Made by a program: the position numbers and the translations under genes. The notes beneath the pieces were generated by a model that was given only the letters and a program-made list of their open reading frames with translations, did not search any database and was not told where the DNA came from. Below, piece by piece: positions 265 through 42,737 of a stretch of DNA of 64,000 bases; position 1 is the first letter of the stretch; each line of letters starts with the position of its first letter. This DNA is from Rubripirellula sp. (lineage in GTDB: Bacteria; Planctomycetota; Planctomycetia; Pirellulales; Pirellulaceae), in assembly GCA_965216875.1 (NCBI GenBank), contig OZ244207.1, positions 5,888,001 to 5,952,000 of the forward strand, given 5' to 3'.

Positions 265-2595
265 CTACATCACATTTCGCAGGTGATCGACGAAATCATC
301 GTCGTCACCTAGCTGTCCGATCTTCTCTGCACAGACTTCGCATGATTCGAGGTGCTGTTCCACAACCTCAGTGCGTTTGATTGAGAGCGCGCCGCCGATC
401 CATCGCCGCAGGTCATCTTCGCTCGGATGCTCTTGAATGCCGCCCGCAGTGCTATCGACCACACTCGCAGCTTTCGTCTCGTCCTGCTTCTCCGATTCGC
501 TTAGTTCGCGGTAATAGGGATGCTCTGCCCACCACTGCGTTGCCGATTCGTTAGTCCATGTTTCATCAAGTTCGATTGACGCCAACGTCTGACGTAATTC
601 TCCCGCGGTGGGTCGATCTGAAGGAGCTTTCGAAAGGCAACTTAGCACGATGTCATCCAACGACTGAGGTAACCCCTTGCGATAGTTGGAAGGTGGTTTG
701 GGGCGCTCTGATACATGTTTCATCAACAGCGGCATGACGCTCTTGGCATAAAACACATCTCCGCCGGTCAACAGAGAGAATGCAACGCAACCGAGTGAAT
801 AGATATCGGATGCAAAGGTCGCCGGATGCCCCTGCGCTGCTTCGGGCGAGATACATGAAGGCGTGCCCTTGATCATCCCCGTCGAATCGACGCTTTCATC
901 TGCCGTCTGATTCATACTGCCAGTGGTACGAACAATCCCAAAGTCGAGCAGTTTCAAGAAGTCGTCCTGAGTTCCCAATTCGCAAACGAACAAATTGGCC
1001 GGTTTCACATCTCGATGCACAAGCCCTGCACGATGAGCCTCCTCGAGCGACAAGCAAGCTTGATCAAGCAAATAGACTGCACGTGCCGGCGAAAGTGGAC
1101 CGTTCTCACGAATCAAGCGTTGCAGATCGATGCCCTTGAGGTATTCCATCACATAATAGAAATCACCCTCTTCGGTCATCCCAAAGTCATACAGTTCAAC
1201 CGTATGAGGTGAGCGAAGATTGGCCGTCGCCTTCGCTTCGCGCTGAAAACGTTCGCGAAGCATTTCTCGCGTGTCTGCATCTCCCGTGAGCGCACGCTGG
1301 CGAATGAGCTTTACCGCGGAAGGGCGAGCAAGGAGCGAATGCTGTGCGAGCCAAACCTCGCCCATTCCACCCTTGCCGATCTGTTTTTGAAGCGTGTACC
1401 CGCCAACTCGACGACCCTCGCGCAGTAGTTCCGCAGGGATCTCGACCTTTGTGCCCGATGACCACGCGACAGATCGCTCGATCACGCTGCGGAGCTCGCG
1501 TAGGTTCCCGGGCCACGTGTAGCGCCGCAGCATCTCGATTGCATCTTCGGTCAATCCTTCGAGTACTTTTCCGGACGAAGTCGCGCGAGCGGTCAATACG
1601 TGTTGCGCGATCTCAATGATGTCTTCACGTCGTTCCGCAAGGGAAGGAACTGACAGTCGAGTTTGCCCGACCAATCGCTCGAGCTGAGCCATGTCCACCT
1701 GCTCTGGCGTGCTGCCCGAAGTCAACGATGCGATCACGCGAATATCTGGATTTGGCTTCTCGCCCGCAGTGCGACACTGATCAGCCTCCTCAAGAAACCG
1801 GCAAAGGTTTTGGCAAGAGTCGTTGGTCAGTGTTTCAACGCCCTCGAGGTACAGCGTTCCACCATCCGCCAACGAAGCCTTGGCAAGTTGTGTCTGGCCG
1901 TCGTTGCCCTTGCCAACTTTGAAAATGGAATCGTCCGTGCTGGCTAGGTGCGCACAGGCGACATAAATGAAGGGTCGATCACGGCGCGCCGACTTTCGAT
2001 GGATCGACCGCGCGACAGCTTCTTGGCCAGCACCACTTGGTCCGGTAAGAAGTAGAGGTGTATCCGACGCCGCACACTGCTTGATGCCTTCACGTAGCAT
2101 GCGCACAGAAATGCTATTACCTAGCAGTGCTTCGCCGTGCTTGCGATGCTCGGCGTCCGCCAACTCGCGAGCCACGGCAAGCTCGTGATGCAAACGGCCG
2201 TTCGCCTCGCCGAGGTGTTGCTCCAGCTCGACAATCCGCTGCCCCGCGTTCAACCGGGCTCGCAGCTCGCCGCGGTCAAAGGGTTTCGAAACAAAGTCGT
2301 CCGCCCCTGCCTCGATCCCCGCGACCACATCCTTCTTTTCTGACTTGCCGGTCAACAGAATGACATAGACATAGCCTTCGTCCGATTGACCCGCGCGAAT
2401 CCGCTCGACCAATTCGACGCCACTCATCGCGGGCATTTCCCAATCGGAAATCACGATCGAGAACGCTTCCGCCTGAAACTGCTCCCAAGCCTCTTTGCCA
2501 TCGGCAGCCTCAACCACCTCATGCCCCATCTGCTCGAGCAATCGCCGCAACTTCGCTCGAGTGAGTCGTTCGTCTTCAGCAATGAGGATTCGCAT
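265..2595 (-). CDS. Fusion protein: receiver domain + degenerate sigma54-activator-type AAA+ domain + Ser/Thr protein kinase + C-terminal HxxxCxxC zinc finger
   Basis: REC: ILIAEDE, ISDWEMP, FVSKPF. AAA+: LLLTGPSGAGQE, ADGGTLYLEGV, YTWPGNLREL. Kinase: IGKGGMGEVW, AVKLI, HRDVKPAN, DFG, SPE. C-terminal HLESCEVC. Confidence 0.9.
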   Translation of the reverse strand: MRILIAEDERLTRAKLRRLLEQMGHEVVEAADGKEAWEQFQAEAFSIVISDWEMPAMSGVELVERIRAGQSDEGYVYVILLTGKSEKKDVVAGIEAGADDFVSKPFDRGELRARLNAGQRIVELEQHLGEANGRLHHELAVARELADAEHRKHGEALLGNSISVRMLREGIKQCAASDTPLLLTGPSGAGQEAVARSIHRKSARRDRPFIYVACAHLASTDDSIFKVGKGNDGQTQLAKASLADGGTLYLEGVETLTNDSCQNLCRFLEEADQCRTAGEKPNPDIRVIASLTSGSTPEQVDMAQLERLVGQTRLSVPSLAERREDIIEIAQHVLTARATSSGKVLEGLTEDAIEMLRRYTWPGNLRELRSVIERSVAWSSGTKVEIPAELLREGRRVGGYTLQKQIGKGGMGEVWLAQHSLLARPSAVKLIRQRALTGDADTREMLRERFQREAKATANLRSPHTVELYDFGMTEEGDFYYVMEYLKGIDLQRLIRENGPLSPARAVYLLDQACLSLEEAHRAGLVHRDVKPANLFVCELGTQDDFLKLLDFGIVRTTGSMNQTADESVDSTGMIKGTPSCISPEAAQGHPATFASDIYSLGCVAFSLLTGGDVFYAKSVMPLLMKHVSERPKPPSNYRKGLPQSLDDIVLSCLSKAPSDRPTAGELRQTLASIELDETWTNESATQWWAEHPYYRELSESEKQDETKAASVVDSTAGGIQEHPSEDDLRRWIGGALSIKRTEVVEQHLESCEVCAEKIGQLGDDDDFVDHLRNVM

Positions 2596-2621
2596 GGATC
2601 CAGAACATCAAAATGTGGCGA

Positions 2622-5243
2622 TCAGTTGGCGGTTTCGTCTTTGCGCGAAGTCTCCAACACTCGCTCGATTTCGGCAAAGAGCAACGATCGTTTGACAGGT
2701 TTCGAAACGTAACCGTCCATTCCTGCTTCCAAGCAACGTTCCTGGTCGCCCTTCATGGCGTTCGCGGTCATGGCAATGATCGGGACGTGCGTGGCGCCGG
2801 AATGATTCTTTTCGCGAACCAGGATTCTGGAAGTTGCTTCGAACCCATCCACCTCGGGCATTTGAACATCCATCAAGATCAGATCAAACGCTTCGCGACC
2901 TGACAACTCAACCGCTTCGCGTCCATTATTAGCCACAATCACCTCGTGGCCGGCTTTCTCGAGAACGCGAATTGCAAATTTTTGATTCGTCTTGTTGTCT
3001 TCGGCCAACAAAACGCGAAGCGAACCTTGGCGCTTGCTGTCAGCAGCCTGGCTAGCATTCACTGGCGCTGGTTGCTTGGAACGCTCGTCATCACCAACAA
3101 GCGTCGTCACGATCGCATTCATCAACAACGACTGTTTTACCGGCTTCAACAGGTGGGCGCTCACCCCTAGCTCTTTGCAACGCGGGATGTCTCCGGGTCG
3201 CGTTCCGCTGGTCAAGAAGATCACGGGCGTATGGTTGTCTCGGCTTCGTAGCTCTTGGAACAACCCAAACCCGTCCATCTCGGGCATGTTGACGTCCGAG
3301 ACGATCAAGTCGAACCGTTCATCGCCGTCCAACCGTTGACATTGATCGAGCGCGGCCGGTCCGCTGTCGACGGCAACCGCAACCATGCGCCAGTTCCTAA
3401 AAATCTCTTCCAAGATGCGCCGGTTCGTTGCGTTGTCATCGACCACCAACACGCGTGTTCCCTCGAGCACGGCGCCGTCGGTCGAATCTTCGATGCGTTG
3501 GTGATCGGTGCCAACGCCCGCAATGATGGTAAACAAGAAAGTCGAACCCTTGCCCGGTTCACTTTCCACCCAAATCCGTCCGCCCATCAACTCGATCAGT
3601 TGCACGCAGATGGCAAGTCCCAGTCCAGTGCCACCATATTTTCGCGTTGTCGAAACATCCGCTTGCTCGAACGGGCGAAAGATAGTGTCCGCTTGTTCTT
3701 TGCTGATACCAATCCCCGTATCCGCAACCGAAAAGAGTAGCTCGACCTGGTCGTCATCGCGTTTGTTTTCAGAAACGCTAACAACAATCTCGCCTGTCTC
3801 GGTGAATTTGATTGCGTTGCCAACCAAGTTAAGAACAACCTGTCGGATTCGGTGCACATCACTGACGATCCCGTCATGCACATCCGGCGCAACGTGGTAG
3901 ACCAATTCGAGACCTTTTTCGTGAGCTCGCGTTGCCAAGGTGTTCAACATGTCGGCAAGTGTGTCGCGAAGCCGAAACGGATGCGATTCGATTTCTAGGC
4001 GGCCCGCTTCAATCTTGGAAAAGTCGAGGATGTCATTGATCAGGGCGAGTAAGGCGGCTGCCGACGCGTTGACCGTTTGCATGTAGTCGCGTTGTTCGCT
4101 GGACAGATCGGTGTCCAATGCGAGATCGGTCATTCCGATGATCGCGTTCATCGGCGTTCGAATTTCGTGACTCATGTTTGCAAGGAAGTCACTCTTGGCG
4201 TGGTTTGCCGCTTCGGCATCCTGGCGTGCAACCTCCAGCTGCTCGGTGCGTTCGGCAACCATCTTTTCGAGATTGTCTCGATGGGTCTGCAACGCGATCT
4301 CAGCTTCGCGTCGGGTGGCAACTTCGGACTCGAGTGCCTGGTTCGTGCGAGCAATCGCGCGTGCCCGATCCGCAGCCGTCTGCGCGAACCACGCTGCTGA
4401 TGCCATCGCAATGGCCAGAAGCGAGCCGACGACGAGCATGATCGTGGCCACGTTCGAAAGCGACGAGACGTGGCCATACTCGTCAAAGATCCGTTGGTTA
4501 CCCGCGTTGAGCGCCTGCCACAGGCAAAGCGTCACCGTGAGAACTGCGATGCACAACGGGACCGGCATCCAAGCGGGCAGCCACGATTCTTCGCCCAAGT
4601 CCTGGCTCCAGACGAACATCAAGAACCCAGTGCTGACAAAGATGAAGCCCACCGACGTGTGAACCGCCATCCGAGTCAGGTTTCCCCATCCATACGCAGT
4701 CTCGAGTTGCGCCGCGTACCCAGAGAGAGCGACCACGCCGAGCCCGAGGGCCAACGAAGCAAGTACCACTCGAACGAGCGATCGGTGGCTGATCGACGGA
4801 AAGGCTGCGGCCAACCCGATCAAGGTGAAACAGACTGCGGTATTTGGCGCCATTCGTCCTGGCTGGGACGTTTCAACGGTGATGTCATGCTTCATCAACA
4901 GTTCGTCGATGCCAAAGTCGACGTGGGTGATGTACTCAAGCAGCGTCAGGCTACCGACCACCGCGGCAAAACCACCGGACCACACCGCCCACCGTTGGTG
5001 TCCAAAACCGACCAGTAAAAGACTCACGCCGCACAACACGAAACCCAATGCAGTGTTGTATTGCATGGGCACAAAGGTCGGCAGCACTTGAATGAGCGTC
5101 AAAGTGCGCGTGTGCCACCCATAGATCACGACGAGCCCAAGAGCCAACGTCAAGATCCCAGCGAGATTGCTACAGCGAGTAAGAAAAGGTCTCAAATTCA
5201 AAACTGACCTGGCAGATCCAGGTGTTATTCGAGGTGACTTCAT
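2622..5243 (-). CDS. Membrane-bound hybrid sensor histidine kinase with two receiver domains
   Basis: Multiple N-terminal TM segments; H-box [15 protein letters not shown]-box [11 protein letters not shown]-boxes DTGIG and GGTGLGL; REC1 SDVNMP and REC2 MDVQMP. No HPt domain visible. Confidence 0.95.
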
Positions 5244-5383: not shown

Positions 5384-6016
5384 CTATTCGGTGGCCTTCG
5401 CAACCTTGCGAGCGGCCATGGCGATGACGATTCGTGCGACGCCGGCTGTGATCAGATTCACGCCGACCAAGATGCCAATCACGAGGAACGATGCTTGGGG
5501 AAGTGCGGTCATCACAAGGATGCTCAACGCGATACCTGCGACGCCGCCAGCCATCGTCCATCCCCAACCAGGAATGTCGCGTGCCTGGATCGCCAAGACC
5601 ACTCGAAGGATTCCGTCAACCAACATCAACGCGGCAATCAAGAAGGTGAGCGACATCAAAGTGGCAAAGGGATAGAACGCCATCACAGCGGCCAACAGGA
5701 TCTGGACGGTACCCGTCAGAAAGGCCTCCAGCTTCAGGCCCTTCTCGGCAAAGCAAACGCCGGCAAGGTTGAAGCAACCGACAACAAACAAGGTCACCGC
5801 GATGAACATTCCGACGATGCCCGTGGCCAAGACGGGTGACAGCAGAGCTGCCGTGCCGCCAACTACCGAGATGATGCCGGCGGCCAACACCCATCCCCAA
5901 TCTTTGGCAATCTCGTGAACCAGCTTTTTGAGGTCGCCAAACTGGGCGGCTGCCTGTGCGTTGGTCTGTTCTTGGGTACTGGCTTGATTTGTCTGAGGTG
6001 CGTGTGCGATGGACAT
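5384..6016 (-). CDS. HdeD/DUF308 family membrane protein
   Basis: WGWVLAAGIISVVGG and GWGWTMAGG half-repeats, about 6 TM helices. ATG at 6016 has a GGAGA SD-like motif. Confidence 0.85.
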   Translation of the reverse strand: MSIAHAPQTNQASTQEQTNAQAAAQFGDLKKLVHEIAKDWGWVLAAGIISVVGGTAALLSPVLATGIVGMFIAVTLFVVGCFNLAGVCFAEKGLKLEAFLTGTVQILLAAVMAFYPFATLMSLTFLIAALMLVDGILRVVLAIQARDIPGWGWTMAGGVAGIALSILVMTALPQASFLVIGILVGVNLITAGVARIVIAMAARKVAKATE

Positions 6017-6192
6017 TTTCGTCTCTCCAGAATCGAGGTTTTTTACTTGTGTTGCCTTGTTTCCGGCGGCCGTTTCACCCGCCTGACACCAGTAAATGGC
6101 CCCAATCGCCCAGCGATTACACCGCCCCGGGAAAAACACGAGATTTCTCATTCACTCCTCAGGCCTGAATACTCGCTGCTCGGTCGGTGGGG

Positions 6193-6602
6193 AGATGAGT
6201 TGGCCACAAAAAGCACGAGAAGGCCCAAAAATAAGGCAAGCTGAGAGCGGTAAGAGCTTGAGCCAGGCTCCATCGATTCGTGCACCTGTGCAAACCACCC
6301 TCCACCGAGTTTCTTGTTCCTTTTCGCGCTTCTAGTGGCAATCCCAGTGCGTCTCCCTGGGGCAGATAAGCTGGCCACGAAAAACACGAGAAGACACAAA
6401 AAGAAGACGAGCCAACAAGCGACGAGAGTTCAAGCAGGCACCGTCGATTCGTTCTTCTGGGCAAATCGCACTCCGCAGAGCTTCTTGTGCCTTTTTGTGC
6501 TTCTTGTGGCTATCCCAATGAGCCTCTCTGAGGAAGATGACCCTTCTTGGCAAACCTATCCCCGAGTTTTTTGTGTCTTTTCGTGCTTCTTGTGGCTATT
6601 CC
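6193..6602. repeat. Left repeat block: two ~170-bp units with ~30-bp terminal inverted arms plus an extra right arm
   Basis: Left arms GGCCAC(A/G)AAAA(G/A)CACGAGAAG at ~6202 and ~6373. Inverted arms (TT)CTTGTGC..TTTT(C/T)GTGCTTCTTGTGGCTATCC, with variants, at ~6310, ~6481 and ~6567. Confidence 0.9.
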
Positions 6603-6659
6603 GCGCAACTGGCCAAAGACGACAAGCATGCCTCCACTCACGCTCAGGTGCGAGGCGTC

Positions 6660-7046
6660 TTAGTCGCGCCGATTCATCAGGTATTTCTTAACGTAAATCT
6701 TCGGGGCACCGAAGTTGATGAGTAACCCCGTCTCAATACGCGAGGATGTTAAGTACCCCAGCAACTGAGCGATGTGCTCATCTTTAATTGCTCTGCATGC
6801 TTTGAGCTCAACGATGAGGCAGTTTTCTACGAATAGGTCTGCAAAATACTCTCCAAGTATCGCTCCATCTTCATCGTAGACCCTCAGCGGACACTGCTGC
6901 TCTGCGTCCAGCCCCAGTTTTCGGAGTCGATGCACGAGCGCGTTCTCGTAGATCTTTTCGAGATGCCCATGCCGATGATACTTGTGAATCTCAAAAGAGG
7001 TTTGCCTTACGACATCGCAGAGTTCGTTGATGTTGTTCCATATCAT
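6660..7046 (-). CDS. GxxExxY family protein (PD-(D/E)XK nuclease-like fold)
   Basis: 128 aa; motif GHLEKIY; ADLFVE...IVELKA (D...ExK); AQLLGYL; GLLINFG. Confidence 0.92.
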   Translation of the reverse strand: MIWNNINELCDVVRQTSFEIHKYHRHGHLEKIYENALVHRLRKLGLDAEQQCPLRVYDEDGAILGEYFADLFVENCLIVELKACRAIKDEHIAQLLGYLTSSRIETGLLINFGAPKIYVKKYLMNRRD

Positions 7047-7175
7047 CGTTGTGCCCCATGGAATTCGGTTTCAGTGACTGCCCATCACCCCGCGCAACCT
7101 ACCGTGAATCGAGAATCCATCGCTGTACTTTATATGCGTCTTGTCGTATTCCAGCCCGTCTCGTTGAGGAGAATT

Positions 7176-7482
7176 GAGTTGGCCACGAAAAACACAAGAA
7201 GACACGACAAGATGGCAGCAAAGAGCGATGAGAGCTTGAGCCAGGCTCCATCGATTCGTTCATATGGGCAAACCACACTCCAGAGTTTCTTGTGCTTTTT
7301 CGTGCTTCTTGTGGCTATCCCAATGCGCCTCCCTGGACAGATGAGTTGGCCACAAAAAACACGAGAAGACACAAAAAGTGAAGACGTGCCTACAAGCGAC
7401 GAGAGCTCAAGCAGGCACTTCGATTCGTTCTTCCGTGAAAGCCACATTTCACAGAGTTTCTTGTGTTTCTTGTGGCTATCCC
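7176..7482. repeat. Right repeat block: two ~167-bp units, direct repeat of 6193-6516
   Basis: Left arms at ~7181 and ~7348; right arms at ~7286 and ~7457. Internal segments AGAGCTTGAGCCAGGCTCCATCGATTCGT and CAAGCGACGAGAG(C/T)TCAAGCAGGCAC match the left block in the same order. Confidence 0.9.
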
Positions 7483-7573
7483 GATGCTCCTAGGTGAGCC
7501 ATTGACTGATGGTGGCGGCTGCGATACGGTGGCTTAGCCACCGTACCAAACTCCCCTGCCCTCTCTGCTTGCC

Positions 7574-8362
7574 ATGCAGACCCAATTGCAACGCAATCCC
7601 GTTTATCAGCAGCTCAACGATTTGCTGCGTTCGACGCTTGCCAGTGAATACGCGTCGGGCGACCGCTTCATGACTGAGCGTGAAATCGCCAAACGCTTCG
7701 AAGTGAGCCGCGCGACGGCCAACAAGGCACTCGCTAGCCTCGTCTCGGAAGGTGTGCTGGAGTTTCGCCGCGGCATCGGAACCTTCGTTCGCCGCGATGT
7801 CATCGACTATGACCTTCAATCGCTTGTCAGCTTTACCGAAAAGGCGCTCTCTGCTGGCCGAAAGCCGTCGACGAAACTCATCGTGTTCCGTTCCGTTGCC
7901 TCAGACGACGTCGATGACGAGATTCGATCCGCCATGAATCTCAAAGCGGGCCAACCACTTTGGGAATTGGAACGATTGCGTCTAGCCGATGGCATTCCAG
8001 TGATCTTGGAGCATCGTTATGTGATGAAGCAACACTGCGAAAAACTCACCAGGGCCCAGGCCTCCGGTTCACTCTACAAAGCTTGGACTCAAAAACATGC
8101 GTTGAAGATCTCGGGTGCTGACGAAGTGATCCGTGCGGTCGTGTTGAAATCCCGCGAAGCCAAACACTTGCAGGTCGCGTCTCGCACGGCGGCTTTGGAA
8201 GTCACCGCCGTCGGCTGCCTCGATGACAACTCGCCTTTGTGGTGGGAACGAACCCTTTATCGAAGTGATCAATACGAATTCCACAGCCGACTCGGTCCCA
8301 TCCAAACGGCGACGCCCGCTCGCGGGCAACTCCGTGGACCGGCCAACGAAGGATCGAAGTGA
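7574..8362 (+). CDS. GntR family (HutC/UTRA) transcriptional regulator
   Basis: N-terminal wHTH (TEREIAKRFEVSRATANKAL, GIGTFV) and C-terminal UTRA-like domain (LERLRLADGIPVILE). Confidence 0.92.
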   Translation: MQTQLQRNPVYQQLNDLLRSTLASEYASGDRFMTEREIAKRFEVSRATANKALASLVSEGVLEFRRGIGTFVRRDVIDYDLQSLVSFTEKALSAGRKPSTKLIVFRSVASDDVDDEIRSAMNLKAGQPLWELERLRLADGIPVILEHRYVMKQHCEKLTRAQASGSLYKAWTQKHALKISGADEVIRAVVLKSREAKHLQVASRTAALEVTAVGCLDDNSPLWWERTLYRSDQYEFHSRLGPIQTATPARGQLRGPANEGSK

Positions 8363-42506: not shown

Positions 42507-42737
42507 TCCCTCCCCGGACTTTGCGTCCGACCCTCCCGCAAGCGGAAGGGTGATTGCTGCTTGGGCAAGCACTTCGGCCTATGGCACCGCGCGGCGCGTT
42601 CAAGCACGAGTCTTTGGGGTCTCTTACTCGGTGGTCTCCGTGCCCTCTGTGGCTCATCCGGTTTATCTGCCAAAGTCCAGCCATGCCCTCCCCGGACTTT
42701 GCGTCCGACCCTCCCGCAAGCGGGAGGGTGATTGCTC
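42507..42737. repeat. Two direct copies of a ~50-bp element
   Basis: CCCTCCCCGGACTTTGCGTCCGACCCTCCCGCAAGCGG(A/G)AGGGTGATTGCT at ~42508 and ~42686. Confidence 0.85.

Follow-up and report, generated by a model that had tools for sequence, protein, structure and literature searches.

A GxxExxY gene framed by paired three-word arms in Rubripirellula sp.: a candidate nickase and the repeats that it may recognise

Three described systems in which a repeat family is tied to a single enzyme gene come closest to the locus presented here. The Ssn nucleases, which are GIY-YIG enzymes, cut their own flanking NTS/SRM repeats as single-stranded DNA, an activity documented in the main text of Chenal et al. 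(2025, PMC11893778). REPIN-RAYT systems consist, in the account given by Bertels and Rainey (10.1101/2021.07.10.451892), of extragenic units of about 100-150 nt with two inverted conserved ends and a variable spacer, and of one single-copy chromosomal gene per repeat family, near-absent from phages and plasmids and described as non-jumping. In the TIRtrons (TIRYTs), as presented by Di Nocera et al. (2013, PMC3733652), a tyrosine (HUH) transposase gene lies within terminal inverted repeats, which give rise to dispersed families as well; the hosts include PVC bacteria and Acidobacteria. The GxxExxY proteins (PDDEXK_3/TIGR04256), of which the protein studied here is a plain member, are listed by Steczkiewicz et al. 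(2012, PMC3424549) as being of unknown function with multiple transfers, and the entry gives neither flanking repeats nor a substrate.

The GxxExxY system combines such a gene with arms of about 30 nt, each composed of three direct 7-nt words. With Ssn-NTS/SRM, as far as the main text of PMC11893778 describes it, this system shares: (i) a small single-domain nuclease gene; (ii) its own flanking repeats (20-50 nt for Ssn) in a repeat-gene-repeat layout; (iii) many gene-less copies; (iv) clade-specific repeat variants; and (v) a wide taxonomic spread. However, the enzyme folds differ (GIY-YIG against PD-(D/E)XK), the activity of the GxxExxY protein is predicted, and the NTS is itself a short hairpin, whereas the arm needs a second, inverted arm to pair. 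That main text makes no mention of GxxExxY or PDDEXK. Apart from the non-jumping gene, the features of REPIN-RAYT systems named above recur here as well, and the repeats are of the REPIN type, with arm copies in the tens, not hundreds. In contrast to those systems, no HUH/Y1 transposase is present, the arms are not internal palindromes, so that stems form only between arms, and the gene is present or absent at many unrelated sites with a tree that does not follow the host. The TIRtrons share the inverted repeats around the gene, the dispersed families and part of the host range, but their enzyme is of another type, and PMC3733652 in its description of them reports no three-word phased arms. 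Because enzyme and repeat shape disagree in each case, the GxxExxY system is a member of neither Ssn-NTS, REPIN-RAYT nor the TIRtrons. In its working it rather probably resembles the first two, with an unrelated enzyme. The preliminary description of this locus, made from its letters, had proposed a REP/RAYT-like system with a PD-(D/E)XK enzyme; this stands as an analogy and fails as a classification, since neither an HUH/RAYT enzyme nor self-palindromic REPs were found. In the literature consulted on GxxExxY and PDDEXK_3/TIGR04256/PF13366, where the name occurs in passing, no link between gene and arms is described; the supplements of PMC11893778 and PMC3733652 could list such repeats.

The window, i.e. 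the whole analysed stretch of 64,000 nt from Rubripirellula sp. (contig OZ244207.1), contains an array at 6201-7478 made of four hairpin units and one remnant around a 128-codon minus-strand frame (Table 1). Its words have the form CAC(A/G)(A/G)A(A/G) and lie 9-10 nt apart. The gene within arm repeats, the four left and five right arms, the units of about 170 bp (period 167-171 nt) and the setting between divergent genes were all recovered as first described. The true start of the DUF308/HdeD-like gene is probably near 6016.

Table 1. Features of the GxxExxY locus and its flanks, in window positions
Feature	Position	Strand	Details
Flanking host gene, DUF308/HdeD-like, outside the cassette	5384-6151	-	profile matches
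Hairpin unit 1	6201-6341		purine-rich left arm 6203-6232, core, pyrimidine-rich right arm 6310-6339
Inter-unit linker, about 30 nt	6342-6371		recurs at 7318-7346
Hairpin unit 2	6372-6512		left arm 6374-6403, core, right arm 6481-6510
Fifth-unit remnant	6513-6598		linker start, core end, lone right arm 6567-6596
GxxExxY gene, 128 aa, predicted PD-(D/E)XK fold	6660-7046	-	G27-E30-Y33, D70, E80, K82, Q94, Y98 intact
Hairpin unit 3	7180-7317		left arm 7182-7211, core, right arm 7286-7315
Hairpin unit 4	7347-7478		left arm 7349-7378, core, shortened two-word right arm 7457-7476
Flanking host gene, GntR-UTRA regulator, outside the cassette	7574-8362	+	profile matches

The units had been described as a two-unit block duplicated across the gene, unit 1 matching unit 3 and unit 2 matching unit 4. 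These pairs do have the closest cores (83% and 81% identity in the alignment, 67-77% for the other pairs), but whole units 2 and 3 (83%) are as similar as units 1 and 3 (82%) or 2 and 4 (81%), which argues for a single tandem array of at least five units in place of a clean duplication. In the alignment a core end precedes the lone right arm, and in a related strain (contigs of run X5) a left arm lies 71 letters before the counterpart of that arm, so the lone arm is taken for what is left of a fifth unit. In X5 the right arm of unit 4 is 10 letters longer and forms a full three-word arm. X5 carries the GxxExxY gene at the same site, and among the differences listed from the window, beyond which 31 further rows exist, four fall inside the gene, all synonymous. 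The same gene at the same site with differing repeats indicates vertical inheritance of a locus whose repeats are still changing. Contigs from four runs of one study cover 5900-7800 with zero differing letters; these runs are probably the source samples, and this support of the assembly is thus not independent.

Outside the locus the genome contains further copies of the arm alone, with BLAST matches of at most 67 nt, and the core is confined to the locus. By the strict pattern, 38 arms in 21 clusters, gene-less copies included, were counted in the 8.26-Mb genome and none in either of two block shuffles, while by a looser pattern an arm occurs in 196 of 20000 random 1.3-kb windows. Scans for sigma-70 promoters and terminators remained at chance level. 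The contigs of this organism show no excision or circle joint, and the related strain also has the site filled. An empty allele between the HdeD-like and GntR genes, a search for which had been suggested, was found neither in 40 relatives, in which the flanking genes mostly escaped the DNA search, nor in runs X1-X8; empty and deleted alleles do occur in relatives at other sites (see below). Apparent rearrangements were rejected: a joint that "skips 76" is a gene-less hairpin at C1:1816606, and the X5 joints 6408-7401 and 6442-7251, explained by contig breaks within repeats, are not counted as deletions. Among the samples that contain the locus none is recorded as RNA, and run X7, perhaps RNA, was set aside, its coverage being limited to the HdeD-like gene.

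The window protein matches the families TIGR04256 (115 bits, cut-off 35) and PF13366 (104 bits, cut-off 22) only, with no HUH/Y1 transposase or GIY-YIG (cd10448) domain. Across an alignment of 81 relatives D70 never varies, and at least 90% of the sequences keep G27, E30, Y33, E80, K82, Q94 and Y98. The predicted structure (pLDDT 94.7) has Cas4 SSO0001 (4ic1) as its best Foldseek match (E 3.5e-4, TM 0.56), several restriction-type domains match at Z 7-8 (VIA Z up to 8.0), and tRNA-splicing endonucleases appear low in the lists. According to this model, the protein is a bare PD-(D/E)XK core with no clear closest relative. A restriction-endonuclease-like fold with D...(D/E)xK is present in both sequence and model, and nuclease activity is predicted on this ground; D-ExK together with QxxxY is the motif of metal-dependent DNases. 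The core is common to Cas4 SSO0001, RecB-type enzymes and Hjc/T7 endonuclease I, a sharing of fold that shows no function, and the window protein differs from Cas4 in having no Fe-S cysteine cluster region or CRISPR context. Kinship with T7 endonuclease I was rejected (E 0.28, not significant), as was a role in defence, for which there were weak partial PADLOC matches only (PDC-M36A, E 4.5e-4) and no defence context. The median dN/dS of about 0.05 (34 of 192 pairs above 80% identity with usable dS) points to strong purifying selection on the gene. The family is large, with 42,615 clusters at 50% identity matching the profile at E<=0.001 (20,955 at 1e-10), and a match is present in 65 of 121 sampled genomes of the host's phylum.

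Among the best 150 profile hits, 47 proteins contain two full GxxExxY domains. The D-E-K residues are found in the first domain only in 44 of them, in the second only in two, in neither in one and in both in none, so that 46 of the 47 have exactly one intact active site. These natural fusions suggest a fold that works in pairs with one active site being sufficient, which is compatible with nicking, for a subfamily that may differ from the single-domain form. The tandem subfamily has 240-295 aa (P0002-P0047 and similar hits; L098:1423-2238). The long paralogue of the present genome (272 aa) gives a very weak second-domain match and has its own GGCAAAAAAAT-type arms.

The linkage of gene and arms, as first proposed for this locus, extends to other genomes. 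In the best 80 of 257 related loci, whose titles name Planctomycetota, Verrucomicrobiota, Kiritimatiellae, Acidobacteriota and others, a CCAC arm lies within 400 nt of the gene in 67 and on both sides in 40, as against 0 of 1600 shuffles; in many cases the left arm stops immediately upstream of the ATG. A family set of 116 loci, comprising the six own paralogues, 30 loci from the phylum sample and 80 among the 150 matches listed (93 more exist) and thus leaning to high scores and multi-copy genomes, has a three-word arm in 97, compared with 15 of 99 distal windows and 7 of 392 shuffles. The purine-rich strand lies upstream and its inverse downstream in 62 of these 97. The refuting outcome set out in the preliminary description, repeats no commoner near GxxExxY genes than elsewhere, was not obtained. 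By the patterns used, 13 of the close and 19 of the family loci have no arm. In the commonest layout a single arm flanks the gene on either side (31/80 and 37/116), and a double-hairpin array such as that in the window is a minority layout. Clear three-word arms are present in two of five records from outside the PVC group, Bacteroides (behind radA) and Sphingomonas (fabD-fabG), and the other three have weak or different arms.

Within the host's taxonomic family the arm pattern is present in 11 of 81 genomes. Six of these have a 27-nt window-type arm. A close orthologue is intact in three of the six and broken in two, in one by a frameshift and in the other by an internal deletion flanked by intact arms; broken orthologues were sought among the arm-bearing genomes. 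The sixth, G194, has 20 arms and no homologue above 35% identity. At G194:C8:218258-219693 seven window-type hairpin units form a tandem array with a 215-nt period. In three loci (L084:1294-3375, L090:1264-3375, L087:1402-3375) the GxxExxY frame continues through the pyrimidine-rich right arm, which is translated as a hydrophobic run, and on into an enzyme-like gene; the arm may there supply a signal-peptide-like segment. In L252 and L257 the downstream gene contains arm remnants at its 5' end.

The present genome encodes six GxxExxY paralogues, the other five being 29-33% identical to the window protein, and each has its own word: CACAAAA-type (window), CGCAGAT, CGCA(A/G)AG, CACT(A/G)AT, ACGAAT and GGCAAAAAAAT-type (beside the long form). 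Strict patterns for these words give 38, 37, 1, 4, 23 and 3 arms genome-wide and none in shuffles. That each word adjoins its own paralogue follows by construction; that it adjoins none of the other five does not. A seventh arm family, CACAGAG (7 arms), adjoins none of the paralogues. The gene-less window-type arms are mostly intergenic, with 31 of 38 arms outside and 7 within long ORFs, which cover 82% of the genome. Some stand alone and others form hairpins around unrelated cores, and they are often interspersed with further palindromic repeats. BIME-like mosaics of gene-less arms, other arm families and REP-like palindromes are located at C1:962360-963186, 3542548-3543200, 4456792-4457704, 5843217-5843715 and 6345788-6346157 of this genome (G000).

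The expected co-variation of repeat and protein was observed on a protein tree from which one short row had been dropped; of its 115 members, 96 have a word. The last word letter requires 14 changes, compared with a shuffled mean of 38.5 (minimum 32 of 300), and the whole word 58 against 75, while the host-genome label requires 96 against 100; word position 2 (A/G) carries no tree signal (26 against 29.6). The nearest protein from another genome shares the last letter in 77 of 96 cases (40% expected). Word distance is the same for paralogues of one genome (2.22) and for cross-genome pairs (2.23), and drops from 2.57 to 1.0 with rising protein identity. Residues that distinguish clades with G-ending words from those with T-ending words lie at the end of helix 1, in helix 3 and in the last strand. 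Taken as sequence comparisons, these results show that the word tracks the protein and not the host genome, by long co-inheritance and co-divergence. Gene and arms are inherited as a single piece, so that such matching by clade would arise even if the protein did not bind.

Presence and absence at the same site could be followed at several junctions. Among 29 loci behind a ruvB-like gene of one family, five are filled and four are empty with overlapping stop/start; two retain both arms around gene remnants, three have arms but lack the gene, and the rest include short spacers and a different small gene. This different gene, of about 120 codons (L230, L234, L236, L237, L238, L242; once behind an arm stub), marks the site as an insertion hot spot. 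At a second site in Pirellulales, filled alleles and empty spacers alternate with a gene-less hairpin that has the same word and with remnants of a different word. The topoisomerase B-A junction is empty in 23 of 24 relatives (ATGA overlap) and filled in one more distant genome. Cassettes occur at overlapping stop/start junctions and within conserved operons, among them groEL-dnaJ, hsdS-hsdR and fabD-fabG, with intact host genes at their sites. Orthologues lie among unrelated neighbours, the same site being kept only between two close strains. As to target duplication, a TAAT repeat at one site is confounded with the outer letters of the arm, and none was seen in a second, more distant comparison. 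Terminal inverted repeats, empty sites and internally deleted derivatives recall IS elements and MITEs, but the cassettes differ from those with a DDE transposase in having no transposase gene and no near-identical copies of the full element; the window clade has one gene copy in the genome. Neither a transposase or recombinase family nor a recurring partner gene was detected among 69 ORFs in the neighbourhood of 35 loci; 34 of these ORFs had no match. The GxxExxY gene is found in 6 of 72,556 plasmid records and in none of 50,697 phage records, and a phage-cargo reading was therefore rejected.

An own word for each clade, together with presence and absence at the same site, suggests that the protein recognises, nicks and spreads its own repeats. 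On balance it is likely, as far as comparative data can tell, that the GxxExxY protein binds its own paired three-word arms and nicks one strand, driving a slow spread; the cutting of flanking repeats as single-stranded DNA by Ssn, described in the main text of PMC11893778, is a precedent for nicking. The protein would bind paired arms in single-stranded, hairpin or cruciform form, the 7-nt words being candidate binding sites and the arms pairing in register, and would act as a dimer needing one active site. After nicking, host repair would copy, delete or move arms and whole cassettes, which would give rise to duplicated units and arrays of the window type, to internal deletions and gene-less hairpins, and on rare occasions to cassettes at new sites. 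The window locus would then, with the same measured confidence, be a cassette whose arms grew into a tandem hairpin array that is now inherited vertically. A bolder version, advanced tentatively, sees the cassettes as autonomous mobile elements with a PD-(D/E)XK nickase of about 125 aa as sole enzyme: a dimer with one active site would read the paired three-word arm, nick it, and drive the element and gene-less arms into operon junctions. We know of no PD-(D/E)XK domain that joins strands.

Should the nicking mechanism be correct, a large family without known function would gain a predicted substrate that can be read from each member's own flanks, and the six protein-word pairs of one genome would be built-in specificity controls. 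It would be the third independent enzyme fold tied to bacterial palindromic repeats, after the HUH RAYTs and the GIY-YIG Ssn, would account for a type of intergenic repeat that is common in PVC and other bacteria, and would offer a source of small sequence-specific cutters of single-stranded DNA or hairpins. Under the mobile-element version, tens of thousands of sequence clusters would form a natural library of word-specific hairpin nickases.

The form in which the arms are read is addressed by their letters and spacers. Placing the two arms in register does not improve the agreement of their variable letters over off-register placement, so that compensatory changes give no sign of pairing. 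Spacer lengths agree in register in 117 of 126 cases, compared with 69 of 126 off register; both spacers match within the cassette in 56 of 63, compared with 40 of 63 for the arm of the nearest protein relative, and letters likewise agree more within the cassette (637/756 against 537/756). The words thus behave as sequence-read sites on two arms kept geometrically matched, which would reflect the need of a paired stem with tolerated mismatches or of a symmetric protein-DNA complex. The best surviving alternative, which we consider unlikely, is one in which the protein would bind three words on double-stranded DNA, bring both ends into contact, and cut or mark them, no hairpin being needed. Triple transposase sites are found at the ends of Mu or Tn7 and provide a model. 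Words conserved as sequence and spaced 8-10 nt apart, the equal matching of letters in and off register, and double-stranded DNA restriction domains among the closest folds all agree with it, but one whole clade has a spacing of 8-9 nt, off the helical period, spacing is matched more between the two arms of a cassette than between near relatives, and many gene-less copies are close inverted pairs.

It is less probable again that the arms are moved in trans by another enzyme, e.g. a RAYT-type transposase, the GxxExxY gene being a passenger or a host-useful nuclease regulated by the arms. The mixing of arms with other REP-like palindromes, the arms without a cognate gene (G194, the CACAGAG family), the frequent overlap of the left arm with the ribosome-binding region and the purifying selection, which also fits a host function, speak for it. 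However, six unrelated words at six paralogues, with the same pairing of word and clade across genomes, need a gene-specific tie, and a recurring partner gene is missing.

Of marginally lower probability still is an action of the arms in mRNA, where the protein or RNase III would clip the cassette in the manner of an intervening sequence, or control read-through, and so make insertion into operons harmless. The junctions and operons occupied by cassettes would suit it, as would the presence of tRNA-splicing endonucleases in the fold lists and the folding of the units, with z scores on the plus and minus strands of -1.9/-3.8 (unit 1), -1.8/-2.2 (unit 2), -2.6/-1.5 (unit 3) and -4.2/-4.9 (unit 4). 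Both strands, however, fold alike, wobble-pair differences in 69 simple cassettes show no strand bias (91 against 72, p=0.16), the motif named above is that of metal-dependent DNases, and an Rfam search of the locus gave no family at gathering score, with sub-threshold hairpin matches only at E<=5. The processed structured RNA that had been offered as a second possibility thus lacks a strand-specific fold, compensatory changes and an Rfam family, and its core is local only.

Elsewhere in the window, a generic pattern flagged a second, unrelated phased triple of CACAGAG/CACGGAG type at 42651 (minus strand). The region 265-5243 contains what we take to be a hybrid histidine kinase and, behind it, a response regulator in fusion with sigma-54-type AAA and Ser/Thr kinase domains.
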